From the NCBI GenBank assembly GCA_919901565.1, contig CAKKPE010000035.1, forward strand, positions 6,396-70,395: DNA of 64,000 nt, written 5' to 3'. Made by a program: the position numbers and the translations under genes. The notes under the pieces were generated by a model. It did no database searches. It was not told the DNA's origin and saw only the letters and a list, made by a program, of their open reading frames with translations. The DNA is from a bacterium (GTDB taxonomy: Bacteria; CG2-30-53-67). Below are positions 31,576 to 49,373 of this stretch, piece after piece; position 1 is the stretch's first letter, and each line of letters opens with the position of its first letter.

Positions 31576-32142
31576 ATGCCAAAACGTATCAATAAGAAAC
31601 CTGTTGTATATCAGTTGAAAGTGACCTTGAAGAATTCCAAGCCGCCGATATGGAGAAGGATTCAGGTCGCCAGTGATACGAGTCTGGAGAAGCTTCATTG
31701 GATACTTCAGAGCGTCATGGGCTGGACGAATTCGCATCTTCATCAGTTCAAGGTGGGGCGAGAGTACTATGGCGAACCCTCCCCGGACTATGATTTCGAT
31801 GTCGAGGATGAACGGAAAATAACACTTGCTGAAGCGGCGCCCGGATTAAAGAAGAAGTTTATCTATGAATACGACCTCGGCGACGGATGGGAGCACGAGG
31901 TACTCGTGGAAAAGGTTCTGGAGCCCGAGCCCGGTGTGCGCTATCCTTTCTGCGCCGATGGCCTACGCGCCTGTCCGCCGGAGGATTGCGGAGGAATCTG
32001 GGGCTATGAGGAATTCCTGGAAGCTATTCGTGATCCGAAGCACCCTGAGCACGATGAGATGCTGGAATGGATCGGCGGGAAATTTGATTCTGAACAATTC
32101 CATCTGGAGTATGTTAATCAGGAATTGAAGCGCTTGAAGTGA
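31576..32142 (+). CDS. plasmid pRiA4b ORF-3-like family protein (PF07929-like)
   Basis: YQLKVTLKNSKPPIWRRIQVASDTSLEKLHWILQSVMGWTNSHLHQF...YEYDLGDGWEHEV matches the family signature. Confidence 0.85.
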   Translation: MPKRINKKPVVYQLKVTLKNSKPPIWRRIQVASDTSLEKLHWILQSVMGWTNSHLHQFKVGREYYGEPSPDYDFDVEDERKITLAEAAPGLKKKFIYEYDLGDGWEHEVLVEKVLEPEPGVRYPFCADGLRACPPEDCGGIWGYEEFLEAIRDPKHPEHDEMLEWIGGKFDSEQFHLEYVNQELKRLK

Positions 32143-32255: not shown

Positions 32256-32885
32256 ATGAAGGGACTCATTCCACAGGACGTGATTGAGCGGAAAATCTAC
32301 TTGATTCGAGGGCAGAGGGTCATGTTAAGTATGGACCTATCCGAACTTTACGGAGTAACAACAAAACGACTGAACGAACAGGTGAAGCGCAACAAGGGCC
32401 GATTTCCTGGGGATTTCATGTTTCAGCTTACGTCTGAAGAAAAAGCAGAGGTGGTCGCAAATTGCGACCACCTCTCGAAGCTCAAGTTTGCTTCGGTCCT
32501 CCCCTATGCTTTTACTGAGCACGGCGCGATCATGGTCGCCAGTGTTCTTAATACCAAACGGGCCATTGATGTAAGCATCTATGTAGTCCGAGCATTCGTA
32601 AAACTTCGTGGAATACTCTCGACGAATAAAGAGTTTGCACAGAAATTAGCCGAGTTAGAGACAAAACTCGAATCCCATGACGGAGCAATTCGTACCCTGG
32701 TCAGAGCCATCCGCCAACTCATGGCGGAGCCGGAGCCGCCAAGAAAAAGAATCGGATTCCAGGCCAAAGAAGGCAGCGTCAGGTACAGAAGATCGGCTTC
32801 GACGGTTTCTTCTCATCGCCGATGGAAAGCGAGTCAGCCTCGCGTCCCCTCGCCCCCTAAAGGGGGTGAGTGCCAGCCCCGTTAG
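32256..32885 (+). CDS. ORF6N domain-containing protein (KilA-N-related DNA-binding)
   Basis: IYLIRGQRVMLSMDLSELYGVTTKRLNEQVKRNKGRFPGDFMFQLTSEE is the ORF6N signature. The C-terminal tail runs into hairpin repeat H2. Confidence 0.8.
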   Translation: MKGLIPQDVIERKIYLIRGQRVMLSMDLSELYGVTTKRLNEQVKRNKGRFPGDFMFQLTSEEKAEVVANCDHLSKLKFASVLPYAFTEHGAIMVASVLNTKRAIDVSIYVVRAFVKLRGILSTNKEFAQKLAELETKLESHDGAIRTLVRAIRQLMAEPEPPRKRIGFQAKEGSVRYRRSASTVSSHRRWKASQPRVPSPPKGGECQPR

Positions 32886-33254: not shown

Positions 33255-34607
33255 ATGAGTCACGATGAAATCGGAGTGTTGCTCGGAAAGGGCGAATCCG
33301 AGAAAATAGAGTTTAAGGAAAAATTCGACAGAGAAGCTATCGAAACCGCGGCTGCGTTTGCCAACACGAAAGGCGGAGTGATTCTTATCGGGTTTTCGGA
33401 TAAAGGAAGAGTCAAAGGCATTCAAATCGGAAAAGAGACGCTCAAAGACTGGGCAAATCAGATTTCTCAGTGCACGGAGCCCAGCATCGTACCGGAAATC
33501 AAACAGGCCGAAATAGAGGGTAAGGATGTTGTGATGATATGGATCAAAGAAGTCCCTATTAAGCCTGTATCCGTGAGAGGCAGATGCCTCAGGAGGGTGG
33601 GAAACAGCAACCGGATAATGACGCCGAACGAAGTTGCCCAAGTGCATCTCGCCACCACCGGCACGAGCTGGGACAAGCTTCCGGCAAAAGATGCTTCTGT
33701 TGATGCCATAGATCTTGCGAAGGTCAAGCGATATGTCAACAAGGCAAACCAATCCGGCAGGAGAAAGATCGGTAATGATGAGACGCCTCTGCAGGTTCTC
33801 GAAAAGCTCGATCTGATAAAAGACGGACAAGCCACCTGGGCGGCAATCCTTCTCTTTCGCAAGGACGGCAAGCGTTTCCTCTCCCAGACAGCGGTACACT
33901 GCGGCAGATTCAAGGAAGAGACCATCGTTATCGATGACAGGATGATCGAAGGCACCATCATAGAGCAGATAGACGATGCAATGGATTTCATCCGCAAAAA
34001 CATCAACGTTCGTTTTGTCATGACCGGAAGGCCCGCAAGAGAGGAAATATGGGACTATCCCATCGAAGCGCTGAGAGAGGCTTTGATCAACGCGGTCTGC
34101 CATCGAGATTATACCATTCCATCGAACACCGAAGTAAGGATATATGACGACAGGTTGATTGTGTGGAATCCGGGAGGACTCCCTCTCGGGATAACCATGG
34201 ATGACCTTTACAAGCCCCATCCCTCTGTGCTCAGGAACAAGGGTATAGGGGAGATATTCTATGACGTAGGCCTCATTGAACAGTGGGGCAGCGGAATAGA
34301 CAAGATGCGAAGTGCCTGCCTGAAATCAGGACTTCCTGAGCCGCAGTTTGAAGAGTATCAGGGATTCAGGGTGATCTTCAGAAAAGACGTCTATACAGAA
34401 GAATATCTCCGCAACCTTGGCTTGAATGAAAGGCAGATCAAGGCAGTGATGTATGTAAAGGAGAAAGGGAAGATTACGAACAAGGAGTATCGTGAAATAA
34501 CCGGGCTTTCTGATGAGGGAGTCAGGATAGACGTGAATGGGCTAATTGGAAAAGGGGTATTATTGTCAAAAGGTAGAGGCAGGAACGTTCATTATGTTCT
34601 TAAGTAA
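33255..34607 (+). CDS. AlbA_2 (Schlafen-like) + HATPase_c_4 + C-terminal HTH ATP-binding protein (putative DNA-binding / defence-associated)
   Basis: N-terminal ESEKIEFKEKFDREAIETAAAFANTKGGVILIGF (AlbA_2). Central ALREALINAVCHRDYTIPSNTEVRIYDDRLIVWNPGG (HATPase_c_4, RecG C-terminal-like). C-terminal wHTH-like region. Confidence 0.8.
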   Translation: MSHDEIGVLLGKGESEKIEFKEKFDREAIETAAAFANTKGGVILIGFSDKGRVKGIQIGKETLKDWANQISQCTEPSIVPEIKQAEIEGKDVVMIWIKEVPIKPVSVRGRCLRRVGNSNRIMTPNEVAQVHLATTGTSWDKLPAKDASVDAIDLAKVKRYVNKANQSGRRKIGNDETPLQVLEKLDLIKDGQATWAAILLFRKDGKRFLSQTAVHCGRFKEETIVIDDRMIEGTIIEQIDDAMDFIRKNINVRFVMTGRPAREEIWDYPIEALREALINAVCHRDYTIPSNTEVRIYDDRLIVWNPGGLPLGITMDDLYKPHPSVLRNKGIGEIFYDVGLIEQWGSGIDKMRSACLKSGLPEPQFEEYQGFRVIFRKDVYTEEYLRNLGLNERQIKAVMYVKEKGKITNKEYREITGLSDEGVRIDVNGLIGKGVLLSKGRGRNVHYVLK

Positions 34608-35114: not shown

Positions 35115-35750
35115 ATGCAAACCTACTCAATTCAAATGGAGGTATCCGGTCCCACGGCTATGTGGACACGCCCAGACACGGGTGACTCGCCGGTGAGTTA
35201 TCCTGTACCGACGTATTCAGCGGCAAAAGGTCTGTTTGAGGCGGTTGTCAGGATTGAGACAGTGGAGATCGTACCGGTCAAGGTGGAAATTTGTAAGCCG
35301 ATCGTTTTCCACAACTACGCGACCAATTACGGGGGGCCATTACGGAAAACAGCAATTATGCCACACAGTAGTTATCAGTTGCTGGCAACAACTCTGATCA
35401 ATGTGTGCTACCGGCTTTATGCGGAGATAAAACCGGCGCGATTTGCCGGGACGTTATCCGAAAAAGCGCGTTTGCAGGCAAGTAAAGGACTCAATGCGCT
35501 GCACGCCTGCCAGGATATGTTCAACCGCCGCTTGAAAAAAGGGCAGTGGCATGATACGCCTTTCCTTGGCTGGCGTGAATTTGTACCAGACTATATCGGG
35601 CCATTTCGGGAGGGTACGCAGATACAGGAAGATATTTCACTCGACCTGCCAAGTTTTCTTTTTTCTGTGTTTGAACCATCAGGGAGCAAACAACCAGTTT
35701 ACAAGCCTGATGCTAAAGTGAGAAACGGAGGGCTTGTCTATGCTGAATGA
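35115..35750 (+). CDS. cas5: type I-C CRISPR-associated protein Cas5c (Cas5d)
   Basis: 211 aa. MQTYSIQMEVSGPTAMWTRPDTGDSPVSYPVPTYSAAKGLFEAVV is the Cas5 Dvulg-type N-terminus. No cas6 in the locus. Confidence 0.85.
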   Translation: MQTYSIQMEVSGPTAMWTRPDTGDSPVSYPVPTYSAAKGLFEAVVRIETVEIVPVKVEICKPIVFHNYATNYGGPLRKTAIMPHSSYQLLATTLINVCYRLYAEIKPARFAGTLSEKARLQASKGLNALHACQDMFNRRLKKGQWHDTPFLGWREFVPDYIGPFREGTQIQEDISLDLPSFLFSVFEPSGSKQPVYKPDAKVRNGGLVYAE

Positions 35751-37828: not shown

Positions 37829-38689
37829 ATGTCAAACGAAGCTAAAAAGATCATGCGCGCAACTGGCCTTCTCGTCATCGAGGCCATCAATTCCAACCCC
37901 AACGGCGACCCAGATCGCGAGAGCGATCCTCGCCAGCGTCCCGATAGACTGGGGGAAATTTCACCGGTGTCATTCAAACGGAAACTGCGAGACCTTGTAG
38001 AGGATAAAGAGGGGCCAGTCTGGAAGGAACTCAAGCAGCATCTTGGTCTTGCTGACGGGGAGTTTGAAGTCCTTGAATCACGTGGACGCGATCGGGGTAA
38101 GATCAAGAAAGAGCTTGAAGACAACGGCAAGATTTTCAAACAGAAATACTGGGATGCCAGGATTTTCGGCAATACCTTTCTTGAAGAGGGAGCAGCCAAT
38201 ACCATTAAAACCGGCGTTGTGCAATTTGGCATGGGGCTTTCGGTAGCACCAATCATCATCGAGCGCCACACGAACACTAACAAGGCCGGTGTCGAGGGGG
38301 ACAAGGATCGTGGCATGGCGCCAATGGCCTACCGTATCGTCCAGCATGGCATCTATTGCATGCCGTTTTTTGTGAATCCCAGTGCGGCGCACAAATCTGG
38401 GTGTACGGCAAAAGATATTGAATTACTGTTGGCCTTGATCCCCCACGCTTATGCCCATTCACGCTCATATGTGCGGCCAAACGTAGAGATCCTGAATGCT
38501 TGGTACATGGAGCACAAATCGGCAATCGGCTCTTGCTCGGATTTCAAGCTGATTGACTCGCTCACGCCGACGAAACTGGAACATTCGGATAGTGCATCAA
38601 ACAACAGGAAAGAGTATGACATTCCGTCTACTCTTCCTGCCGAGCTTCAGGGGAAAGTCGCTCCTTTGAAAGACCTGATGGAGTTCTAA
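37829..38689 (+). CDS. cas7: type I-C CRISPR-associated protein Cas7c (Csd2)
   Basis: 286 aa. ...LLVIEAINSNPNGDPDRESDPRQ...KRKLRD matches the Csd2 N-terminal signature. Confidence 0.85.
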   Translation: MSNEAKKIMRATGLLVIEAINSNPNGDPDRESDPRQRPDRLGEISPVSFKRKLRDLVEDKEGPVWKELKQHLGLADGEFEVLESRGRDRGKIKKELEDNGKIFKQKYWDARIFGNTFLEEGAANTIKTGVVQFGMGLSVAPIIIERHTNTNKAGVEGDKDRGMAPMAYRIVQHGIYCMPFFVNPSAAHKSGCTAKDIELLLALIPHAYAHSRSYVRPNVEILNAWYMEHKSAIGSCSDFKLIDSLTPTKLEHSDSASNNRKEYDIPSTLPAELQGKVAPLKDLMEF

Positions 38690-40891
38690 ATGAGCGAATA
38701 TCTCGCCCATAGCGCCAAGGACGGCATAGCGGAACAGACATATAGGCAGCATGTCTCGGAAGTCCTACGCATGGCGCGCGAGTATGCGAAGAGGGCGGCG
38801 GCGTATTCTCCGCTTGGCCCGCTTTTGCTGGCGGCTGTGGAGTACGCCGCTGCATACCATGATCTGGGAAAACTGGACGATGACAATCAGACTGTGCTGC
38901 GAACTGGCAGCAAGGGAAGCTTGCCGGTGAAGCATTGGGATGCGGGGACGGCTTATCTTCTGACCGACTCGAAGCGGTGGGCAAATCTTATTGGTGCCTT
39001 TCTGGTAGCTTGCCATCACAAAGGCTTGCTTTCGTTGCCGGATGAACAGGTCAGAGGACCTGATATGTTTCGTGAGGCTTCGGCTAAAGGCAGCACCGCT
39101 CTCGGCCTGTCCGGTTATCTTGCTGTTCATGCAGCAGAGATTGGTGTTGGCGTTTCAGAACAGGATTGGAAGGGCAAAGCCGCAACACCGCTCTTCATGC
39201 GTATGGCACTGTCATGCCTCGTAGATGCAGATCACACCGACACTGCGCGGCATTATGGAAATGTCGTACCCGAAGGCGATATGCCGCTTGCAGCCGAACA
39301 GCGGCTTCTGGCGCTCGACCAATATGTTGACGGTCTGACAACTGACGACAATAGCAGGAAGGAACGAGATGAAGTCCGGCGACAGGTATATGATGCATGC
39401 CGAACTGCCCAACCGAACGAAGGCGGCATGATTGCCTGTGACAGCCCGGTCGGAACTGGCAAGACAACAGCTGTCATGGCTCATCTTCTAAAGGCTGCAA
39501 AGGAGAAAGGTCTGCGGCGCGTGTTTGTTGTATTGCCGTTCACCAACATAATTGACCAGTCAGTTGATGTCTACCGCAAGGCGCTGGTACTGGATGGCGA
39601 AGAGTCGGAAAGAGTAGTTGCTGCTCACCACCACAAGGCAGAATTTGAAGAGGAGGCGAACCGAGCATTTTCCTTTCTTTGGAATGCGCCGATAACCGTC
39701 ACGACTGCCGTACAGTTCTTTGAGACCCTTGCAAGCAAACACCCCGCAACGCTTCGTAAGCTACATCAGTTGGCTGGTTCAGCCATTTTCATCGATGAAG
39801 CCCACGCAGCATTGCCCGCACATCTCTGGCCACAGGCCTGGAAATGGCTCCAGGAACTCGTGAAAGATTGGGGCTGTTATATCGTCATGGCTTCCGGTTC
39901 CCTTACGCGCTTTTGGGAGTTTGAGGAGTTTTCGGCACCACCGGCTCGGCTTGCAGAACTGGTCAGTCTTGATGTGCGTTCGTCGGCAATGCATACCGAA
40001 ACATCAAGAATCACCTACAGAATCAAAAACGAGGCGCATTCTCTCACGGATTTGTGTGACTGGATAGTCCAATTGCCGGGACCGCGTCTTGTTATCCTTA
40101 ACACTGTTCAGTCGGCTGCGGCAGTGGCCAGGGAGCTTGCCGGAGCAGAGCAGAAGAACAGGCAAAAGGTTGAACACCTATCAACAGCGCTGGCCCCGAT
40201 TGATCGCAAGGGAGTCCTGGAAAGGGTAAAAAAACGTCTGGGTGATAAGAATGACACCGATTGGACGCTGGTTGCTACCTCATGCGTTGAGGCGGGAGTT
40301 GATTTATCATTCCAGTCCGCAGCCCGCGAAATGTGCAGTCTGGTCAGCACCATTCAGACAGCCGGTCGTGTGAATCGTTCGGGAGAGTTCGGAACCTGCG
40401 AGCTGTGGAGTTTCAGGATTAAGGCAAGTGAACTCCTCAGAGAACATCCCGCGTTCACTGTTTCTTCAAGAATACTTGCGGACCTCTATGAGAAGGGGCA
40501 CGTTTCTCCCTATTACTGTAAAGAGGCCATGAGACGGGAGGTAAGAGACCGCAACAGGGGACGTTGTGAGGATGACCCAATTGTAAAGGCTGAGAAAAAA
40601 CGGGAATTCCCCGAGGTTGATGAGAAATTTAAGGTCATCGATTCAAACACGATTACTGTTGTTGTGGATGATGATTTGCGCCAACGCCTTGAGCGTCGTG
40701 AAAGAGTTGAACCGTTTGAATTGCAGCAAAAAAGCATCAATATTTACTCGTCAAAGGAAAGGACGTATGGCGTAGCGCCAATTCATGGGTTTGAAAAACT
40801 ATACCGTTGGACCCTGAAATATGACGACTTTCTTGGCTATATGGCTGGTGTGCTCCCCTTGACGAACTTTGCTGATAATTGCTGCATTTGA
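38690..40891 (+). CDS. cas3: CRISPR-associated helicase/nuclease Cas3 (HD + SF2 helicase)
   Basis: 733 aa. HD motifs (YHDLGK; LVDADHTDT). Helicase motifs I (DSPVGTGKT), II (FIDEAHA), V-like (SCVEAGVDLSF) and VI (QTAGRVNRSG). Its ATG directly abuts the cas7 stop. Confidence 0.9.
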   Translation: MSEYLAHSAKDGIAEQTYRQHVSEVLRMAREYAKRAAAYSPLGPLLLAAVEYAAAYHDLGKLDDDNQTVLRTGSKGSLPVKHWDAGTAYLLTDSKRWANLIGAFLVACHHKGLLSLPDEQVRGPDMFREASAKGSTALGLSGYLAVHAAEIGVGVSEQDWKGKAATPLFMRMALSCLVDADHTDTARHYGNVVPEGDMPLAAEQRLLALDQYVDGLTTDDNSRKERDEVRRQVYDACRTAQPNEGGMIACDSPVGTGKTTAVMAHLLKAAKEKGLRRVFVVLPFTNIIDQSVDVYRKALVLDGEESERVVAAHHHKAEFEEEANRAFSFLWNAPITVTTAVQFFETLASKHPATLRKLHQLAGSAIFIDEAHAALPAHLWPQAWKWLQELVKDWGCYIVMASGSLTRFWEFEEFSAPPARLAELVSLDVRSSAMHTETSRITYRIKNEAHSLTDLCDWIVQLPGPRLVILNTVQSAAAVARELAGAEQKNRQKVEHLSTALAPIDRKGVLERVKKRLGDKNDTDWTLVATSCVEAGVDLSFQSAAREMCSLVSTIQTAGRVNRSGEFGTCELWSFRIKASELLREHPAFTVSSRILADLYEKGHVSPYYCKEAMRREVRDRNRGRCEDDPIVKAEKKREFPEVDEKFKVIDSNTITVVVDDDLRQRLERRERVEPFELQQKSINIYSSKERTYGVAPIHGFEKLYRWTLKYDDFLGYMAGVLPLTNFADNCCI

Positions 40892-40900
40892 GAAAAGGCT

Positions 40901-41530
40901 ATGGACAATCAAGAGCCGATCATGATTTCCGCTCTGAATCATTACCTCTACTGCCCGCGGCGTTGCGGGCTGGTGCACGTTGAACAGGTCTGGAGTGAGA
41001 ACCTGTACACCATGCGCGGGCGCGACATGCATGAGAATGTTCACGAAGACTCCTCGCATTCTTTGGCTGGTGTACGATATGAACGAGCTCTTCCGATTTG
41101 GTCAAAGCGGCTGCATCTGGTCGGCAAGGCAGATTTGGTAGAGTTTCATGGAGAAATTCCATATCCTGTTGAGTATAAATCGGGAAGACATAAAACATTT
41201 CAGAATGATTACGTTCAGCTCTGCGCACAGGCCATGTGTCTTGAAGAGATGCTGGGGGTGAAGGTGGAGAAGGGCGCTCTTTACTGGCACGGGTCACGGG
41301 AACGGAAAGAGGTAGTCTTCACCGATGAGCTGCGGGGTCGGGTAGAGGAGGTGGCTGCCGAAGTCCATGCCATGATCGCGGAGAAGCGGCTTCCGCCGCC
41401 GGTGAACGACGGGAGGTGCGAAGATTGTTCTTTGAAGGATTCCTGCATGCCGGGAGCGATTGCCAACAAAGGAATGAGAAAGAAGGCGGAAATGGAGTTG
41501 TTTACAATGCCTCATAGGACGGAGGAATAG
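40901..41530 (+). CDS. cas4: CRISPR-associated exonuclease Cas4 (RecB-like, Fe-S)
   Basis: 209 aa. N-terminal Cys (YLYCPRRCGL) and C-terminal CEDCSLKDSC give the 4-Cys cluster. PD-(D/E)xK-like core. Confidence 0.85.
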   Translation: MDNQEPIMISALNHYLYCPRRCGLVHVEQVWSENLYTMRGRDMHENVHEDSSHSLAGVRYERALPIWSKRLHLVGKADLVEFHGEIPYPVEYKSGRHKTFQNDYVQLCAQAMCLEEMLGVKVEKGALYWHGSRERKEVVFTDELRGRVEEVAAEVHAMIAEKRLPPPVNDGRCEDCSLKDSCMPGAIANKGMRKKAEMELFTMPHRTEE

Positions 41531-41532
41531 GA

Positions 41533-42360
41533 ATGGGAAAAAGCATCGCGGTTTTCAAGGGGAAGGAAATCAGGAGAACGCTGTACAAGAACGAGTGGTG
41601 GTTTTCTGTCTCTGATGTTGTAGAAGCGTTAACCGATAGCGCTGATCCAAAGCAGTATATCAAGAAAATAAGACAGCGGGATACAGAGCTTAATTCCTAC
41701 TGGGGTACAATTTGTACCCCCCTTGAAATTATGGCGCCGGACGGGAAAACGCGTGAGACAAACTGCGCAAATACCGAGGGTGTTTTTCGCATCATCCAGT
41801 CCATTCCTTCTCCCAAGGCGGAGCCCTTCAAACGTTGGCTCGCCAAAGTCGGCTATGAGCGGGTGCAGGAGATTGAAGACCCGGAACTCGGTTCGAAGAG
41901 GACGCGGGCGCTCTATAAGGCCAAGGGCTACTCCGACGACTGGATCGAGAAGCGGATGAGGGGTATCGCCATCAGGGAAGAGCTTACGGATGAATGGAAA
42001 AAGCGGGACGTGCGAGAGAAAAGGGAATATGAGATCCTTACCGCGGAAATTGCCAAGGCTGCTTTCGGCATTACGCCTGGGAAACACAAGAAGATCAAAG
42101 GTCTGAAGCGTGAAAACCTGCGGGACCATATGAACGACCTTGAGCTGATCTTCTCGATGCTCGGCGAGGCGGCGACGACCGAGATTACGCGGGTTGATGA
42201 TGCCAAGGGATTTCATGAAAGCAAACATGCTGCTCGCAAGGGCGGAGAAGTTGCCGGAAAGGCGCGAAAAGACCTTGAACAAAAAACCGGGAAACGAGTA
42301 GTGTCGCGCGAAAACTACCTGACGACATCAGAAAGCCGGAAGAAGATCGAGAGGAAGTAA
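41533..42360 (+). CDS. Bro-N domain protein (DNA-damage-inducible protein D / phage antirepressor-like)
   Basis: FKGKEIRRTLYKNEWWFSVSDVVEALT...GVFRIIQSIPSPKAEPFKRWLAKVGYERVQE matches the Bro-N consensus. Starts 2 bp after the cas4 stop. Confidence 0.7.
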   Translation: MGKSIAVFKGKEIRRTLYKNEWWFSVSDVVEALTDSADPKQYIKKIRQRDTELNSYWGTICTPLEIMAPDGKTRETNCANTEGVFRIIQSIPSPKAEPFKRWLAKVGYERVQEIEDPELGSKRTRALYKAKGYSDDWIEKRMRGIAIREELTDEWKKRDVREKREYEILTAEIAKAAFGITPGKHKKIKGLKRENLRDHMNDLELIFSMLGEAATTEITRVDDAKGFHESKHAARKGGEVAGKARKDLEQKTGKRVVSRENYLTTSESRKKIERK

Positions 42361-42412
42361 TGCCGTCATGAATGAACTAATTTTTCATCAGGATCATTGA
42401 GGAGTTTCCTTT

Positions 42413-43555
42413 ATGCCGCAACCACTTGTCCAATACGCCGAACTGCTCGGCCAGATCAAACAGCGGATCAGGCAGGGACAGACCCGCGCCATGCTGTCCG
42501 CTAATGCTGAAATGATCCTGACCTACTGGGATATTGGACGGATGATTCTGGAAAGACAGGAACGGGAAGGATGGGGGACCTCTGTCATTCCACGGTTGTC
42601 CCGTGATCTTCGCAACGAACTGCCGGAAGTAAAAGGATTTTCCGAACGGAATATCAAGCTTATGGTGCAGTTTTATCGTGAATACCCGTCTCTTTCTCCA
42701 ATTGGGCAACGGCCGGTTGCCCAATTGACGGATAAGAACTCGACAGACCAGGAACAGGGTGACGCCGAATTAATGCAACGGCTCGTTGCCCAATTGCTAT
42801 GGGCGCAGAATGTGCTGCTGATGCAAAAAGTCAAAGATATACCGACCCGTTGCTGGTACGCTCAAACCGCAATAGAGCAGGGTTGGAGCCGGGACATTCT
42901 GCTTCATATGATTCAAGGTCGGGCGCACGAACGCCAGGGCAAGGCAATACACAACTTTGAGAGCCGCTTGCCTTCTCCTCAATCTGACTTGGTACAACAG
43001 GCTTTAAAGGACCCCTACATCTTCGATTTCCTCACCCTTGAAGAGCCGTTTCACGAGCGTGAGCTGGAAACTAGCCTGATACGGCATCTGGAGAAATTTC
43101 TGCTGGAGCTCGGGCAGGGGTTTGCCTTTGTCGGACGGCAGTATCATCTCGACATCGGAGAAGAGGATTTTTACATTGACCTTCTTTTCTATCATCTGCG
43201 GCTCCGTTGCTTCGTGGTGATCGAATTGAAGAAGGGCGGTTTCAAACCGGAATACGCGGGCAAGATGAACTTCTACTGCAATGTGGTGGATGACCGGTTA
43301 AAACATGCGGGCGATAATCCTACCATCGGGCTGATTCTCTGTCAGGACAAGAAGTCCGTGCTGGCCGAATACACGTTGCGAGGCGTTTCCAAACCGATCG
43401 GTATTTCTGAATATGAACTGACTCGGGCGCTACCACACAGCCTGAAATCGGCGCTTCCCAGCGTTGAGGAGATTGAACGCGAATTGAGCGAAGATGTTGA
43501 AGGCGTACCTAAGAAGCGCAACAGGAAGAAGTCCGGAAAGAGGATCGCGCAATGA
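42413..43555 (+). CDS. DUF1016 (YhcG-like) PD-(D/E)xK nuclease family protein
   Basis: The N-terminal region matches DUF1016. Nuclease core IDLLFYH...CFVVIELKKGGFKPEYAGKMNFY (D...ExK). Confidence 0.75.
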   Translation: MPQPLVQYAELLGQIKQRIRQGQTRAMLSANAEMILTYWDIGRMILERQEREGWGTSVIPRLSRDLRNELPEVKGFSERNIKLMVQFYREYPSLSPIGQRPVAQLTDKNSTDQEQGDAELMQRLVAQLLWAQNVLLMQKVKDIPTRCWYAQTAIEQGWSRDILLHMIQGRAHERQGKAIHNFESRLPSPQSDLVQQALKDPYIFDFLTLEEPFHERELETSLIRHLEKFLLELGQGFAFVGRQYHLDIGEEDFYIDLLFYHLRLRCFVVIELKKGGFKPEYAGKMNFYCNVVDDRLKHAGDNPTIGLILCQDKKSVLAEYTLRGVSKPIGISEYELTRALPHSLKSALPSVEEIERELSEDVEGVPKKRNRKKSGKRIAQ

Positions 43556-43669
43556 ATACGGAAGTGAAGTCGTGACACTATGTCACGGGTTCTCCATATA
43601 TTCAATTCCTTCTCCGTGCGCTCTGTGGTAAAACTTGACAATACTGAAAAAGCTGAAGGGTGATGATAT

Positions 43670-44728
43670 ATGAAAAAAAGGAATCAAGATGACCCAATGA
43701 AAAGCGATCTGATTCTCTATCAGACGGACGACGGCAGAACCAGAATCGAAGTCCGGTTGCAGGATGAAACGGTATGGATGAGCCAACTGGCCATGGCGGA
43801 GTTGTTTCTAACAACTGTTCCTAACATCAATATCCACTTGAGCAATGTATATAAAGAAGGCGAGCTTTCAGAGACGGCAACGGTTAAGGATTACTTAATA
43901 GTTCGACAGGAAGGTTCCCGGCGGGTTAAGCGTGCGGTCAGGCACTACAATCTTGAAGCCATTATAGCGGTTGGCTACCGGGTTAAATCCAACCGTGGCA
44001 CGCAGTTCCGAAAATGGGCTACCGAAAGACTGAATGAGTATCTCGTAAAGGGCTTTACTCTGGACGACGAACGCCTGAAAGAAGGCAGTAATATTGGTTC
44101 CGACTACTTTGATGAACTGCTGGAGCGGATTCGTGACATACGGTCGAGCGAAAAGCGCTTCTATCAGAAAATTCGCGACATTTATAGGCTTGCGGCTGAT
44201 TACGATCCGAAGGCAGAGGAAACGCTCGAGTTTTTCCGTATCGTCCAGAATAAACTGCACTTTGCCATATCCCATAAGACGGCAGCGGAAATTATTTCTG
44301 AACGGGCGGATTCGTCGAAGCCCAATATGGGATTGACCTCATGGAAGGGATCCAAAGTCCGCAGGGGGGATGTGACAATCGCCAAGAATTACCTGAATCA
44401 GGATGAGTTAGAGCAACTCAATCGCATTGTAGAAATGTATCTGAACTATGCTGAAGACCAGGCTAAACGCCGAAGGCAGGTTTTCATGCGCGACTGGCGG
44501 AAAAAACTGGATGCCTTCCTGCAACTTAACGAAAGAGAGATTCTCGCTGATGCCGGCAAAGTGGCCAAGGAGATAGCAGACAAACTGGCGCTTGATCAAT
44601 ACGATATCTTTAATCACAATCGGCTTGTTATCGAAGCGAAAGAGGAAGCCCTTGCCGATGATGAAGAGTTGAAGCATATAGAATCAGCTATTGAAAACAA
44701 AAAGAAGCAGTGGCGCAAAAATGACTGA
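43670..44728 (+). CDS. RhuM family protein
   Basis: LILYQTDDGRTRIEVRLQDETVWMSQLAMAELF and VGYRVKSNRGTQFRKWATERLNEYLVKGF are characteristic of the RhuM family. Confidence 0.8.
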   Translation: MKKRNQDDPMKSDLILYQTDDGRTRIEVRLQDETVWMSQLAMAELFLTTVPNINIHLSNVYKEGELSETATVKDYLIVRQEGSRRVKRAVRHYNLEAIIAVGYRVKSNRGTQFRKWATERLNEYLVKGFTLDDERLKEGSNIGSDYFDELLERIRDIRSSEKRFYQKIRDIYRLAADYDPKAEETLEFFRIVQNKLHFAISHKTAAEIISERADSSKPNMGLTSWKGSKVRRGDVTIAKNYLNQDELEQLNRIVEMYLNYAEDQAKRRRQVFMRDWRKKLDAFLQLNEREILADAGKVAKEIADKLALDQYDIFNHNRLVIEAKEEALADDEELKHIESAIENKKKQWRKND

Positions 44729-44762
44729 ACCCATACTTCCTCCACTAATGCATGATGGAAAG

Positions 44763-45149
44763 TTACCACTCCGCCCTGATGGGATATTTTGTTATGCGAG
44801 GATCGGGCGTGAGGATGACCAGTCCTCCGGCAATTGCTTGGCAGATGAGAATTCTGTCGAAGGGGTCCTTGTGATAATCCGGGAGTCGGGAAAGCTGCAA
44901 TACCGCCGCTTCGTCCAGCGGCAATGAATCGATATCATGGCGGGTGCGCCACTTCTTGATGAATTCGTGGGGAGTGCCCGGGAGCGGCAACTTGCCCAGC
45001 TTGTGTTTGACGATGATCTCCCATGCGGAGGCAACGCTCAGGTAGACCTCATTGGCGGGATCAGAAAAAAGCCGACGGGCAGTGTCGGACAACTCGGGAC
45101 CTCCCGACACGATCCAAAGAAACGTGCAGGTGTCCAGAAGGATGTTCAC
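44763..45149 (-). CDS. vapC: type II toxin-antitoxin system VapC family toxin (PIN domain)
   Basis: 128 aa. MNILLDTCTFLWIV... PIN-domain acidic residues (D6, E, D). 4-nt overlap with the upstream antitoxin gene. Confidence 0.8.
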   Translation of the reverse strand: MNILLDTCTFLWIVSGGPELSDTARRLFSDPANEVYLSVASAWEIIVKHKLGKLPLPGTPHEFIKKWRTRHDIDSLPLDEAAVLQLSRLPDYHKDPFDRILICQAIAGGLVILTPDPRITKYPIRAEW

Positions 45150-45397
45150 GATTCGGCACCGCCAAACATCGCGAGCATGTCCTCCGGCAACTCCTCGAAG
45201 AACGAGGCAGGCACTGTAAATTTGCCTTTGGACAAGCCTATGGGACGCGGCTTATTCCGATGGGGAGCAAGGGGACGTATTTCAGCGACCGGCTGGTTCC
45301 GCCTGCACACGACGACGATTTCCCCATGCTCCACTTCTTCAAGGTAGTGTGAGAGATGGGTTTTTGCTTCATGAATATTGATTTTTTTCATGGTCAA
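45146..45397 (-). CDS. type II antitoxin (Phd/YefM-like)
   Basis: 83 aa. INIHEAKTHLSHYLEEVEHGEIVVVCRRNQPVAEIRPL matches the Phd/YefM fold pattern. Translationally coupled to vapC. Confidence 0.7.
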   Translation of the reverse strand: MTMKKINIHEAKTHLSHYLEEVEHGEIVVVCRRNQPVAEIRPLAPHRNKPRPIGLSKGKFTVPASFFEELPEDMLAMFGGAES

Positions 45398-45414
45398 ATA
45401 TTAAACCAAGTAGT

Positions 45415-45427
45415 TGACTAAGTCAAG
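45415..45427. promoter_or_regulatory. perfect palindrome TTGACT-A-AGTCAA in the divergent vapB/cas1 promoter region (candidate antitoxin operator overlapping a -35-like hexamer)
   Basis: Sits in the 61-bp intergenic region between the vapB start (45397, minus) and the cas1 start (45459, plus). Confidence 0.3.
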
Positions 45428-45458
45428 GGAAAATTCTCTAAAGCAGAGGGCCATAAAC

Positions 45459-46493
45459 ATGAAACAACTCCTGAATACGCTCTACGTCATGACCCAGGGG
45501 GCATACGTCAATCTTGATCATGAGACCCTGAAGGTGGAAGTGGAAGGCAAGGTGCAGATGCAGGTGCCGCTTCATCATCTTGGGGCTATCGTGACCATGG
45601 GAAACGTGATGATGAGCCCGTTTCTTCTGGGACGCTGTGCGGACGACGGGAGAGCGGTCGTGATCCTGGATCGGAACGGCCAGTTCAAATGCCGAATGGT
45701 AGGCAAGACCACAGGAAACGTCCTGCTCAGACAGGCACAGTATGAGTTTGTCAGGGATAAAGAGAAGTCGACAGGGGTTGCCCGGAACATCGTGGCGGGA
45801 AAGGTTAGAAATTCCCGTGAGGTGCTTCTTCGCGGAGCCAGGGAAACCGAGAATCAGGAAGAGATCTCAGCTCTCAAGAAGGCTGCCGATATTCTCGCCG
45901 ATGCGCTCTTTCGTCTGAAGGATACGCACGATATCGATGTGGTGCGGGGTTATGAAGGTGAGTCGGCTAATGCCTATTTCGGTGTTTTTGACCGGATGGT
46001 GAAGGAGGACGCACGCAAAACGTTCAAGATGAATGGACGAAACAGAAGGCCGCCCCTCGATCCGGTGAACGGCCTGTTGTCGTTTCTCTATACGCTTGTG
46101 CTCAATGATTGCATCTCTGCATTGGAAGGGGTGGGACTTGATTCACAGATGGGTTTTCTCCATGCCCTCAGACCGGGAAGACCTTCCTTGGGCCTGGATT
46201 TGATGGAAGAGTTCCGTTCGCTGCTGGCCGACAGGCTTGCACTGACGCTGATCAATCGCAAACAGATAACGTCAAAGGATTTTGAAGTACGGCCAGGCGG
46301 CGCAACCCTGCTGAACGACGAGGGACGAAAGACTGTCGTGGTGGCGTATCAAAAGAGGAAGCAGGATGAATTCAAACATCCTGTATTAAATGAGAAGGTT
46401 TCGTTTGGTCTGCTCCCCCATGTTCAGGCACGGCTTTTGGCAAGACACCTGAGAGGCGATCTGGAAGTCTATCCACCTTTCTTGTATTCATAG
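45459..46493 (+). CDS. cas1: CRISPR-associated endonuclease Cas1 (type I-C)
   Basis: MKQLLNTLYVMTQGAYVNLDHETLKVEV is a typical Cas1c N-terminus. The 45414 ORF start is probably an over-extension. Conserved acidic and His residues are present. Confidence 0.9.
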   Translation: MKQLLNTLYVMTQGAYVNLDHETLKVEVEGKVQMQVPLHHLGAIVTMGNVMMSPFLLGRCADDGRAVVILDRNGQFKCRMVGKTTGNVLLRQAQYEFVRDKEKSTGVARNIVAGKVRNSREVLLRGARETENQEEISALKKAADILADALFRLKDTHDIDVVRGYEGESANAYFGVFDRMVKEDARKTFKMNGRNRRPPLDPVNGLLSFLYTLVLNDCISALEGVGLDSQMGFLHALRPGRPSLGLDLMEEFRSLLADRLALTLINRKQITSKDFEVRPGGATLLNDEGRKTVVVAYQKRKQDEFKHPVLNEKVSFGLLPHVQARLLARHLRGDLEVYPPFLYS

Positions 46494-46507: not shown

Positions 46508-46798
46508 ATGTGGATCATCGTTGCTTATGATGTGTCAACGGATACTAAGTCCGGACGCCGAAGGCTTCGCCGCGTGGCTCAGGCATGTAAGAACTACGGC
46601 CAGCGTGTTCAAAAATCGGTCTTTGAATGTCAGGTGGATGAGATGAAGTATGAGGCTCTGCGAAAGAAACTCCTGGAAGAAATTAATAAAGAAGAGGATA
46701 ATCTGCGTTTATATCGCCTGACAGAGCCAAGAGATGAACATGTGGAAGAGTATGGGATGGCAAGAACTATTTTCTTTGATGAACCTCTGATCATTTAG
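46508..46798 (+). CDS. cas2: CRISPR-associated endoribonuclease Cas2
   Basis: 96 aa. [41 protein letters not shown]. Confidence 0.9.
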
Positions 46799-46975
46799 TG
46801 CGAACCTGATGCGCTATCGAAAAAGCCGTAAGATTCGTGAAAGATAAAAAACAGCTTTTATCAATATGTTAGGTGATAGTGAAGTGTTTGCATCGAGAAT
46901 ATTTAAGACCGATTTTATGATTTCGCAGAATATGTTTCTCAACATATTGAAATCAAAGCAAAAAAAACAAGAACA
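46799..46975 (+). promoter_or_regulatory. CRISPR leader (AT-rich, between cas2 and first repeat)
   Basis: 177 bp, AT-rich relative to its flanks. Lies at the opposite end of the array from the degenerate terminal repeat. Confidence 0.6.
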
Positions 46976-48949
46976 GAAGCACCCGCCCACGTGGGCGGGT
47001 GAGGATTGAAACTCTGCAGCGGCCAAGGAACTCAGATGCAATGGGATGAAGCACCCGCCCACGTGGGCGGGTGAGGATTGAAACAGCTTTATTGATCTGG
47101 ATGGCCCTCCCCGTTGCCGGAAGCACCCGCCCACGTGGGCGGGTGAGGATTGAAACTGGAACGTCTGCGACTGATCCGGTCCCAGGCCCGGAAGCACCCG
47201 CCCACGTGGGCGGGTGAGGATTGAAACTGAACCCATGATGGTCGATGTCTCGGCCTTTTCACGAAGCACCCGCCCACGTGGGCGGGTGAGGATTGAAACT
47301 CCGAAGCGGTCGGGACCATCCACGCCCTGGCCCGAAGCACCCGCCCACGTGGGCGGGTGAGGATTGAAACAATTCGTCGAGAGTCCCGTTGTGGTGGATA
47401 TTGTGAAGCACCCGCCCACGTGGGCGGGTGAGGATTGAAACAAAGGAACAATGCTGATATCATCTAACGCCAACTGAAGCACCCGCCCACGTGGGCGGGT
47501 GAGGATTGAAACTTTTTTGATATTGATCTTGTCCACCGGGACCACGGGAAGCACCCGCCCACGTGGGCGGGTGAGGATTGAAACCTGATACATCATATAT
47601 CTCCGTCGCCTGGCCCTCGAAGCACCCGCCCACGTGGGCGGGTGAGGATTGAAACAAGATCACGGATGCCAAGGGTATAGCAGGCCCGTCGAAGCACCCG
47701 CCCACGTGGGCGGGTGAGGATTGAAACAGTTTGGCATGATGGTATGAACTCCTTGCCTCAGGAAGCACCCGCCCACGTGGGCGGGTGAGGATTGAAACAG
47801 AGTGTCCCATATCCCGTCATTGACGATCAGGTCGAAGCACCCGCCCACGTGGGCGGGTGAGGATTGAAACATCCCCTCCAGCAGTTCAGCCGCTGCCAGA
47901 AGAAAGAAGCACCCGCCCACGTGGGCGGGTGAGGATTGAAACCTGTAAGACCTTACCGTTAAAGACCGGCCTCCCAGGAAGCACCCGCCCACGTGGGCGG
48001 GTGAGGATTGAAACAATATTATGGTAAGAAAGTACGTCACCTCTCCCGGCGAAGCACCCGCCCACGTGGGCGGGTGAGGATTGAAACCAAGTAGGATCGC
48101 AGAACTTCGCCAAATCCAAAGGAAGCACCCGCCCACGTGGGCGGGTGAGGATTGAAACGGGTTTGACCCCCCGGGGGGCTCGGCCGATGGGTCGAAGCAC
48201 CCGCCCACGTGGGCGGGTGAGGATTGAAACAATCTGCCTGTGTAGTTTAACCCATCCATTGCCCAGAAGCACCCGCCCACGTGGGCGGGTGAGGATTGAA
48301 ACGGGTTTGACCCCCCGGGGGGCTCGGCCGATGGGTCGAAGCACCCGCCCACGTGGGCGGGTGAGGATTGAAACAGATGCGACAATGCTTTGCCTCGACG
48401 ATCTCGGTAGAAGCACCCGCCCACGTGGGCGGGTGAGGATTGAAACCCCGGTACGACCGGGAGAAGGAAGACTTTTATATGAAGCACCCGCCCACGTGGG
48501 CGGGTGAGGATTGAAACCCAGCCCGGGTGACGGGATCTTTGCGTGGGATAATGAAGCACCCGCCCACGTGGGCGGGTGAGGATTGAAACTTTACAGCGTG
48601 GACATGTCATGGTCGGCTCTCCTTCGAAGCACCCGCCCACGTGGGCGGGTGAGGATTGAAACGAAAACCACTTACTCACAGTCTGGCGATGCCGATTGAA
48701 GCACCCGCCCACGTGGGCGGGTGAGGATTGAAACGCGGAGTGCAGCCGCAGGACGATATCCTCCAAGCCGAAGCACCCGCCCACGTGGGCGGGTGAGGAT
48801 TGAAACCATAAATGTTTGATCCCTTGGCCGCCCGAACCCGGGAAGCACCCGCCCACGTGGGCGGGTGAGGATTGAAACATGCGATCTCAGGCGGAGGCCT
48901 CCGGGGAATACGAAGCACCCGCCCACGTGAGCTGGTGAGGATTGAAACT
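46976..48949 (+). CRISPR. CRISPR array, 28 repeats / 27 spacers; repeat GAAGCACCCGCCCACGTGGGCGGGTGAGGATTGAAAC (37 nt), spacers 34-36 nt
   Basis: Period ~72 bp. The repeat holds a perfect 22-nt palindrome, CACCCGCCCACGTGGGCGGGTG, and ends in the ATTGAAAC 5'-handle sequence. The last repeat (48913-48949) is mutated (GGGCGGGTG to GAGCTGGTG). Spacers 17 and 19 are identical. Confidence 0.95.
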
Positions 48950-49097: not shown

Positions 49098-49373
49098 ATG
49101 AAACGATCTGAAAGAAACGAAATAAGGATTTGCCCCAAGTGCCTCCATTCTAAGTATCTCGAGGCGACAGCCGTCATGCAACGGGGGAAGCTTGTCACAA
49201 CCCGCTTGCCGAGACACACCCTGGACGACCGGGGAATCAAATGGTGGCCAAGCACCAGGTGTATCACATGCGATTACGTCGGCATGGTAGAAGACGTGAT
49301 CGCCGACCGAAACTTTATAAGGATCATAAAGGAAGCACCCGCCCACGTGGGGATGAACTGCATGATATGGTGA
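49098..49373 (+). CDS. small zinc-ribbon protein (CPxC...CxxC), hypothetical, embedded between the array's terminal repeat and an orphan partial repeat
   Basis: GGAGG sits 7 nt upstream of the ATG. MKRSERNEIRICPKCLHS...WWPSTRCITCDY. The last ~13 codons read through the partial repeat at 49332, so the true C-terminus is uncertain. Confidence 0.35.
   Translation: MKRSERNEIRICPKCLHSKYLEATAVMQRGKLVTTRLPRHTLDDRGIKWWPSTRCITCDYVGMVEDVIADRNFIRIIKEAPAHVGMNCMIW
49332..49352 (+). repeat. orphan partial CRISPR repeat (first 20 nt of the repeat)
   Basis: GAAGCACCCGCCCACGTGGG matches repeat positions 1-20 exactly, then diverges. Confidence 0.7.

Follow-up and report, generated by a model that had tools for sequence, protein, structure and literature searches.

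Accessory genes inside immune operons have been described for several kinds of system. The PDC candidates arose from a "guilt-by-embedding" approach that screened genes lying within BREX, DISARM, and type I restriction-modification (R-M) operons (Payne et al., bioRxiv 10.1101/2024.01.29.577857), and the main text of that report does not mention CRISPR (clusters of regularly interspaced short palindromic repeats). The anticodon nucleases PrrC and RloC are encoded within type I R-M operons. RhuM was named as a probable toxin in multilayer defense, and type I R-M loci contain RhuM and Doc genes (Anantharaman et al. 2013, PMC3710099). RhuM open reading frames (ORFs) were also reported between cas9 and cas1 in type II-C loci of Bacteroides fragilis (Tajkarimi and Wexler 2017, PMC5704556). 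DdrC of Deinococcus radiodurans, which was described as having no homologues outside Deinococcus, forms a homodimer that detects DNA nicks or double-strand breaks and holds them in pairs (PMC11347143). Here we analyzed a 64,000-nucleotide stretch of DNA from a bacterium of the GTDB lineage CG2-30-53-67 (assembly GCA_919901565.1, contig CAKKPE010000035.1, positions 6,396 to 70,395 of the forward strand), referred to below as the window. In the window, a 3.9-kb block of five genes separates cas4 from cas1 in a type I CRISPR-Cas operon. Three genes on the plus strand encode a Bro-N protein, a DUF1016 (YhcG) nuclease, and a RhuM family protein, and two on the minus strand form a toxin-antitoxin (TA) pair.

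Neither the components of this block nor embedding as a principle is new. The three plus-strand genes are like the PADLOC candidates PDC-S13, PDC-S02, and PDC-S05 in that their products match those models over the full length and in that they are single genes nested co-directionally in an immune operon, but the host system here is type I CRISPR-Cas, the genes occupy a specific position, preceding cas1 or cas4, and the stack comprises three candidates and a TA pair. As with PrrC and RloC, an accessory effector gene lies inside a DNA-targeting immune operon; in contrast to those systems, the window has no HEPN or ABC ATPase gene, the host is CRISPR-Cas, and both latency and activation by an anti-defense protein are hypothetical here. 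The B. fragilis loci likewise have RhuM at the junction of effector and adaptation genes, but they belong to a class 2 system and have no Bro-N or DUF1016, and their description was not generalized. In the literature that we searched, we found no account of a protein of extreme conservation and DdrC-like fold whose gene is embedded at a defined slot of CRISPR-Cas loci of types I-B, I-C, and I-E.

Bro-N, DUF1016, and RhuM genes each recur singly just upstream of type I adaptation genes. One slot lies upstream of cas1 or cas4 and a second lies upstream of cas3, in type I-B, I-C, and I-E loci from many phyla. The genes that occupy these positions encode Bro-N, DUF1016, RhuM, Fic, and 23S_rRNA_IVP proteins, singly or in varied combinations and orders. 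They always run in the direction of the cas genes, and most of them touch or overlap the cas gene that follows, often with apparent translational coupling. We favor the view that the block in the window probably consists of four accessory cassettes (Bro-N, DUF1016, RhuM, and the TA pair) that are stacked yet independent of one another and are co-expressed with the cas operon as extra immune or immune-support factors, with the TA pair stabilizing the locus. The genes of the block and those that flank it are:

40901-41530, plus strand: cas4 (Pfam PF01930)
41533-42360, plus strand: Bro-N protein, 275 amino acids, PADLOC PDC-S13 (PF02498, 9.5e-15)
42413-43555, plus strand: PD-(D/E)xK nuclease with DUF1016_N and YhcG_C domains, 380 amino acids, PADLOC PDC-S02 (Pfam, 6.4e-39 and 4.1e-67)
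43670-44728, plus strand: RhuM family protein, 352 amino acids, PADLOC PDC-S05 (Pfam, 7.7e-115)
44763-45149, minus strand: PIN-domain toxin, 128 amino acids, convergent with RhuM (PF01850, 1.4e-11)
45146-45391, minus strand: Phd/YefM-type antitoxin, 81 amino acids, divergent from cas1 (PF02604, 1.4e-09; TIGR01552)
45392-45458, no strand: divergent spacer between antitoxin gene and cas1, 67 nucleotides (nt), holding a palindrome and a promoter-like site
45459-46493, plus strand: cas1 (PF01867; NCBIfam Cas1c, TIGR03640)

All five genes that a preliminary description had placed between cas4 and cas1 were present, and every domain call in the block exceeded its Pfam gathering score. The calls for RhuM (PF13310, 382.9 bits, profile positions 1-248 of 252) and DUF1016 (DUF1016_N PF17761, 133.6 bits; YhcG_C PF06250, 225.4 bits) held in these profile searches, and the DUF1016 protein carries a D...(D/E)xK motif (FYIDLLFY...FVVIELKKG). 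The match of PF02498 to residues 13-105 of the Bro-N protein scored 55.4 bits against a cutoff of 25.6. NCBIfam had no family for the three plus-strand inserted proteins or for the PIN toxin. In PADLOC, the three plus-strand proteins corresponded to three separate single-gene candidates with full-length matches: PDC-S13 (E value of 6.6e-118, residues 3-271 of 275), PDC-S02 (1.1e-146), and PDC-S05 (1.1e-148). The DUF1016 protein also matched the PADLOC model "PD_DExK, CAS associated" (9.6e-36). The gap of 2 bp between cas4 and the Bro-N gene was as described, with the cas4 stop codon TAG at 41528-41530, the Bro-N ATG at 41533, and GGAGGA shortly 5' of that ATG. An alternative start for RhuM gives a protein of 343 amino acids, as in the gene call on the source contig (L001, on record from a Hainich groundwater metagenome assembly; numbers with L denote loci in our set). 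The description of cas4 and cas1 as normally adjacent was borne out by L005 and L006, in which the two genes overlap by 4 nt.

Bro-N genes were found next to cas genes of several subtypes. We took the best 80 species-level loci from a scan with Bro-N and the best 80 metagenome loci from a scan with RhuM; genes in the fetched loci were called by ORF heuristics, clustered, and mapped, with tblastn and Pfam checks for part of them. The three close Bro-N homologues inspected first were all in or beside cas loci, at differing positions and in differing subtypes. Cas genes were present in 21 of the 80 Bro-N loci, all co-directional with Bro-N, and in 16 a cas gene was within 300 nt. Among loci with at least 75% identity to the window Bro-N, 10 of 14 held cas genes. 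The order was cas6e-BroN-cas1e in eight type I-E loci, cas7-BroN-cas4 in seven type I-C loci, and cas4-BroN-cas1 in L022, L060, and a type I-B locus on plasmid pACLO of Arcobacter cloacae LMG 26153. Bro-N occupied the second slot, upstream of cas3 or cas5, in L005, L012, L021, and L029. The gap from Bro-N to the downstream cas gene was mostly -8 to +16 nt. The pACLO locus, from a cultured strain with RefSeq annotation, has the order cas7-cas5b-cas3-ATPase-cas4-BroN-cas1b-cas2, and its Bro-N protein is 46% identical to that of the window. The AAA_14/DUF4143 ATPase gene between cas3 and cas4 of pACLO (L178, 4227-5486) is another embedded gene.

Relatives of the DUF1016 and RhuM proteins were found at the same boundaries. 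All six close DUF1016 relatives that we inspected (69-89% identity) were in or beside cas loci: three in the order cas6e-DUF1016-cas1e, one in the order cas4-DUF1016-cas1, one directly upstream of cas3, and one adjoining a cas6e fragment and followed by RhuM. RhuM relatives occupied such positions in 6 of 80 loci. The arrangements observed were cas4-RhuM-cas1 (L029, L091, L092, and L103), RhuM-cas1e (L094), and cas4-RhuM-BroN-cas1 (L095). RhuM was 81% identical where Cas4 and Cas1 were 48 and 49% identical. Other loci had Fic or the 23S_rRNA_IVP four-helix protein in the same slot.

The DUF1016 gene and its relatives had some additional features. Some close relatives (P0156 and P0162, 73-74% identity, 552-556 amino acids) contain a Fic domain between DUF1016_N and YhcG_C, such that two slot-occupying families are fused in one protein. 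In the window gene, two copies of a 22-nt segment lie 69 nt from each other (42699-42796); the segment encodes QRPVAQL...QRLVAQL and looks like an internal duplication in DUF1016_N. The same ORF contains a perfect palindrome with 12-nt arms, CAATTGGGCAAC / GTTGCCCAATTG. The 114-nt spacer between DUF1016 and RhuM contains the perfect palindrome CGTGACA-cta-TGTCACG at 43571-43587, and the fold of this spacer was not unusual (z -1.4).

The three plus-strand genes did not behave as a portable unit. It had been proposed that Bro-N, DUF1016, and RhuM together make up one portable module that homes into immunity operons. Part of the basis for this proposal was sound: DUF1016 and RhuM have been recorded as passengers in type I R-M loci (PMC3710099; PMC9881135 Table 2; bioRxiv 10.1101/2024.01.29.577857), and in the loci of relatives the three kinds of gene recur in immunity operons, including those of CRISPR-Cas. 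The module itself is the least credible of the explanations that we considered. All three genes are together in the window, and pairs are found occasionally (BroN-DUF1016 in L021; DUF1016-RhuM in L175, L112, and L120; BroN-RhuM in L057 and L095), but either gene of a pair may come first, the partners are divergent (DUF1016 at 29-41% identity beside a RhuM or Bro-N at 66-79%), and each gene is much more often alone. DUF1016 was within 10 kb in 4 of 80 Bro-N loci and RhuM in 3 of 80, and only in L021 was Bro-N directly followed by DUF1016. Conversely, the RhuM loci included a Bro-N relative in 2 of 80 and DUF1016 in 4 of 80, in either order. The order in L095 is the reverse of that in the window, and none of the more than 170 loci fetched, other than the window, had the triplet. 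There was also no sign of homing by a mobile element: direct or inverted repeats flanking the block or its single genes were at chance level, Pfam detected no recombinase in the inserted block, and there was no compositional break, as the GC content of the inserted genes, overall and at third codon positions (GC3), equaled that of the cas genes.

A simpler arrangement, cas4-BroN-cas1, is probably the state from which the window was derived. The closest adaptation module that we found (L060, a Geobacter metagenome-assembled genome [MAG]) has Cas1, Cas2, and Cas4 proteins that are 80%, 76%, and 66% identical to those of the window. In L060, 10 nt separate cas4 from BroN, and BroN overlaps cas1 by ATGA. 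DUF1016, RhuM, and the antisense TA pair would have been added later, between Bro-N and cas1, and these insertions would have broken the usual coupling of the slot gene to cas1.

Sequence comparisons indicated that Bro-N is under very strong purifying selection. Bro-N proteins were 89-92% identical across loci in which the Cas proteins were 26-56% identical or belonged to another subtype. Between the window and L002, the Bro-N genes had 80% nucleotide identity and a third-position identity of 0.52, with a nonsynonymous divergence (dN) of 0.05 and saturated synonymous divergence (dS), and dN/dS was below ~0.02. Because of the saturated synonymous sites, we rejected recent horizontal transfer as the cause of the high Bro-N identity. 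The identities of Bro-N and RhuM, far above those of the neighboring Cas proteins, argue that the cassettes are independent.

The CRISPR-embedded copies of Bro-N fell into two or three clades of a neighbor-joining tree. In two of these clades, 21 of 25 members were in cas loci, with type I-E and I-C contexts interleaved, and R-M-linked members were in other clades. The family comprises 773 clusters at 50% identity (E values up to 1e-30), and its members come from many bacterial phyla, lineages of the candidate phyla radiation, and one Methanosarcinales MAG. Only 4 of 50,697 phage records contained relatives, and this near-absence from phage genomes makes the "antirepressor" annotation of the family misleading. 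A prophage or anti-CRISPR origin of Bro-N was rejected in view of its co-directionality and coupling with cas genes, its near-absence from phages, and the long arrays with intact repeats.

The predicted fold of the Bro-N protein resembles that of DdrC, with an N-terminal DNA-binding domain and a C-terminal helical bundle. The protein is predicted to consist of a Bro-N domain (approximately residues 10-105) and a helical C-terminal domain, and Pfam gave no match in the C-terminal 169 residues at E values up to 10. An AlphaFold2 model made with a shallow alignment (sequences 79-92% identical) had a predicted local distance difference test (pLDDT) score of 56.8 in its C-terminal half, and we replaced that alignment with a set of sequences 38-91% identical. 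The model from the diverse alignment had a pLDDT of 92.4. DdrC (PDB 7QVB, 7UDI, and 8U0G) was its sole strong structural match, at 12% identity and a root-mean-square deviation (rmsd) of 7.7 A. A phmmer search of all PDB chains with Bro-N returned nothing at E values up to 1, and hence no sequence homology to DdrC. DdrC is damage-induced and described as confined to Deinococcus, whereas the Bro-N gene is in a cas operon and break binding by its product would be a property predicted from the fold.

E. coli DinD (b3645) has a similar architecture. It has 274 amino acids, compared with 275 for the window protein, a Bro-N domain at residues 10-105 (Pfam, 32.4 bits), and a weak common C-terminal motif, KGLK..x..DHM..EL. 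Direct comparison of the two proteins was not significant (BLASTP E value of 0.018 over 66 C-terminal residues; hhalign probability of 0.6%). In contrast to the window gene, dinD is a solitary SOS gene outside any immune operon; the window gene starts 2 nt after cas4, which leaves no room for a LexA-controlled promoter of its own. DdrC, the Bro-N/PDC-S13 family, and DinD may be three "DNA-damage" proteins of one superfamily. A profile comparison of Bro-N with RhuM was not significant (probability of 0.2%) and thus did not show a common N-terminal domain.

The minus-strand genes encode a PIN toxin and a Phd-type antitoxin. The pair had been called VapBC. A PIN toxin (PF01850, 45.5 bits) is indeed encoded, and a small antitoxin gene lies upstream and overlaps the toxin gene by 4 nt, but the antitoxin is of the Phd/YefM type (PF02604 and TIGR01552) and the pair is therefore PIN/Phd, without a canonical VapB. 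The most likely start of the antitoxin gene is ATG at 45391 (TTG at 45397 is less likely), and that of cas1 is ATG at 45459 (MKQLLNTLYV; TTG at 45414 is less likely). The perfect palindrome noted earlier in the spacer between these genes is real, TTGACTAAGTCAA, and lies at 45414-45426, one base from the position given before; by itself it does not exceed chance, as the window contains 154 perfect palindromes with 6-nt arms, or ~0.15 expected per 62-nt spacer. The sole promoter-like site for the antitoxin gene is TTGACT-17 nt-TAATAT on the minus strand, which ends 6 nt before the ATG. The minus-strand half of the palindrome overlaps the -35 region of this predicted promoter, an arrangement that fits a TA operator, and it is plausible from the sequence that the palindrome is the operator of the antitoxin.

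A connection between the palindrome, or TA autoregulation, and expression of cas1-cas2 had also been suggested as a possibility. On the plus strand, TTGACT in the spacer is followed by a poor -10 sequence. Because the antisense TA pair precedes cas1, transcription of cas1-cas2 would have to start in the 67-nt spacer or reach these genes by read-through. Our promoter and terminator scan was not richer than shuffled sequence (7 versus 5.6 and 7 versus 5.9), and internal promoters or terminators can therefore not be claimed.

A TA-like pair on the opposite strand directly before cas1 was found only in the window and in L002. Minus-strand genes before cas1 in L012, L031, and L036 were artefacts of ORF calling, antisense to cas4, and recurrent TA pairs are thus unsupported beyond the window and L002. 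L002 (1-12849) has two adaptation sets on one contig, a cas1-cas2-cas4 set with a long array and a type I-E set. In the latter, Bro-N is followed by an ORF of 95 amino acids, an oppositely oriented helix-turn-helix/MqsA-like pair, and cas1e.

The CRISPR-Cas operon of the window, judged by its model matches, is type I-C-like. Cas1 matched the NCBIfam model Cas1c TIGR03640 with 518 bits (cutoff of 385), and matches to the Cas5c and Csd1 (Cas8c) models were below the cutoffs (47 versus 85 and 25.5 versus 218.65). Cas1 is clearly of the I-C type, and Cas8 had no Pfam match and only a weak C-terminal match to Csd1. The gene order is cas5-cas8-cas7-cas3-cas4, with cas3 after cas7 and not first as in the type I-C order cas3-cas5-cas8c-cas7-cas4-cas1-cas2, and this unusual order was common to the window, L005, and L022. 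The remaining features of the operon are:

35115-35750, plus strand: cas5 (Pfam/NCBIfam; same calls on source contig L001)
35734-37797, plus strand: cas8 (NCBIfam)
37829-38689, plus strand: cas7 (Pfam/NCBIfam)
38690-40891, plus strand: cas3 (Pfam/NCBIfam)
46508-46798, plus strand: cas2 (Pfam/NCBIfam)
46799-46975, plus strand: CRISPR leader, ~178 nt (repeat analysis of the window)
46976-48948, plus strand: CRISPR array of 27 perfect 37-nt repeats, GAAGCACCCGCCCACGTGGGCGGGTGAGGATTGAAAC, and 1 degenerate repeat at the end, separated by 34-36-nt spacers

One 35-nt spacer, GGGTTTGACCCCCCGGGGGGCTCGGCCGATGGGTC, occurs twice in the array. The terminal repeat (48912-48948) has 2 mismatches, and an isolated 20-nt partial repeat is found at 49332, ~380 nt beyond the array. 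Three other genes lie 5' of cas5: PRiA4_ORF3 (31576-32142), ORF6N (32256-32885), and a gene for a SLFN_AlbA_2/HATPase_c_4 protein (33255-34607). PRiA4_ORF3 and ORF6N are also 5' of cas3 in L008, PRiA4_ORF3 is similarly placed in L021, and ORF6N is upstream of the cas locus in L005. The PRiA4_ORF3/ORF6N set may be a second recurrent group of genes that flank cas loci.

In the stack of independent cassettes that we favor, the three plus-strand genes would be transcribed with the cas operon, and each product would work on its own in immunity or in support of it, a role already suggested for genes that lie inside R-M, BREX, and DISARM operons. RhuM would be an anti-phage effector, the DUF1016 protein a DNA nuclease, and Bro-N a dimeric DNA-binding protein that recognizes DNA breaks. 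The TA pair would stabilize the locus, and its autoregulated promoter would sit in the spacer that serves, or is read through for, cas1-cas2. In support of a defense role, the representative of PDC-S05 (RhuM) protects E. coli B against T7, T5, and T4, with an approximately 1000-fold lower efficiency of plating for T7 and T5 (PMC12881386). Several points weigh against our view. The representative of PDC-S02 (DUF1016) did not protect in the single test that has been published (PMC12881386), and in the literature searched we found no published test of PDC-S13 (Bro-N). The extreme purifying selection on Bro-N is unusual for a stand-alone defense effector. Roughly three in four Bro-N loci, and the majority of RhuM loci, are outside cas loci, and the link to CRISPR-Cas is thus specific to subfamilies and not universal. 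After cas genes, type III and type I R-M genes were the next commonest neighbors, and many loci were solitary; where Bro-N was outside cas loci, its commonest neighbors were type III R-M genes (of 110 flanking proteins, 8 had ResIII and 5 had N6_N4_Mtase). All of these frequencies are rough, since they come from the best-scoring 80 loci per scan, many of them on short contigs. Our view also gives no account of how single genes that lack a recombinase come to lie at one junction in operons that are not related, and the functional roles given above are all inferred.

We considered it doubtful that these subfamilies are CRISPR-specific accessory factors that cooperate with the adaptation machinery and are not independent defenses. 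Under this explanation, a DdrC-like Bro-N dimer would bind nicks or ends made by Cas3 and hold the fragments for Cas1-Cas2(-Cas4), and the DUF1016 nuclease would trim prespacers, an activity that would matter most in type I-E systems, which have no Cas4. The position next to cas1 or cas4 with stop and start codons that often overlap, the clades of CRISPR-embedded Bro-N (21 of 25 members in cas loci, R-M-linked copies elsewhere in the tree), and the retention of cas4-BroN-cas1 down to 46% identity in type I-B are all consistent with such cooperation. So are the six of six close DUF1016 relatives in cas loci, three directly before cas1e, and the match of the DUF1016 protein to the CAS-associated PADLOC model. 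DdrC, the sole strong structural match of Bro-N, binds pairs of breaks (PMC11347143), and purifying selection of this strength points to a ligand that is conserved and universal, for example DNA ends. In contrast, the same families are found in R-M and BREX operons and as solitary genes (bioRxiv 10.1101/2024.01.29.577857), DUF1016 occurs together with Cas4 in type I-C loci, the window included, and some copies are upstream of cas3 and distant from cas1. In the window itself, 3 kb and an antisense TA pair lie between Bro-N and cas1, and the likeness to DdrC is one of fold at 12% identity and 7.7 A rmsd.

It is unlikely that the cassettes are guards like PrrC, that is, latent toxins that are restrained by the Cas or R-M machinery and freed by an anti-CRISPR or anti-restriction protein to give back-up by abortive infection. 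Embedding in nuclease-helicase immune operons does recall PrrC in type Ic R-M, RhuM takes the position of the Doc toxin in R-M loci and was proposed to be a toxin (PMC3710099), and none of the three plus-strand genes has a cognate antitoxin. A physical interaction would be expected to tie a subfamily to one host system, and high conservation would fit a conserved cellular target. But toxicity and interaction with Cas proteins are purely hypothetical, many homologues are solitary, and near-identical Bro-N proteins accompany I-E, I-C, and I-B systems that have Cas proteins with identities of 26-56% or without homology to one another, which is hard to square with a specific protein-protein latch. 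Still less likely, and in our opinion very improbable, is that the genes are neutral or selfish hitchhikers at module boundaries that tolerate insertions, persisting by addiction or because their expression is free of cost. The slots are module boundaries (the 5' end of the operon and the junction of interference and adaptation genes), TA pairs are classic addiction modules, and the composition of the block is fully ameliorated. Nonetheless, the dN/dS of Bro-N (below ~0.02) and the identity of RhuM (81%, compared with ~49% for Cas proteins) show that the proteins are under strong functional selection, the occupants come repeatedly from a few families and are not random genes, and an anti-phage phenotype of RhuM has been demonstrated (PMC12881386).

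Based on these comparisons, we continue to favor independent cassettes. As a more tentative idea, which we regard as possible and less probable than our favored one, the DdrC-fold Bro-N, the CRISPR-linked DUF1016 clade, and RhuM might constitute an unrecognized accessory of type I systems (I-B, I-C, and I-E), sited at the junction of interference and adaptation genes because they act on breaks or fragments made by Cas3.

Genes nested in R-M, BREX, and DISARM operons have been a productive source of new defense systems, and CRISPR-Cas operons were outside that screen. A slot before cas1 or cas4 that collects the same conserved genes gives a simple rule for finding more, and plasmid pACLO of Arcobacter cloacae LMG 26153 provides an annotated example in a cultured strain. 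The common "prophage antirepressor" annotation is corrected for a Bro-N family that is almost absent from phage genomes, and the predicted break-sensor fold of Bro-N, beside machinery that captures DNA fragments, is a biochemical lead. If the proteins are accessories of the CRISPR-Cas systems, then they would feed or police spacer acquisition, or act as a back-up when the Cas machinery is blocked, and DdrC would be a divergent member of a family that is found across bacteria and in some archaea.

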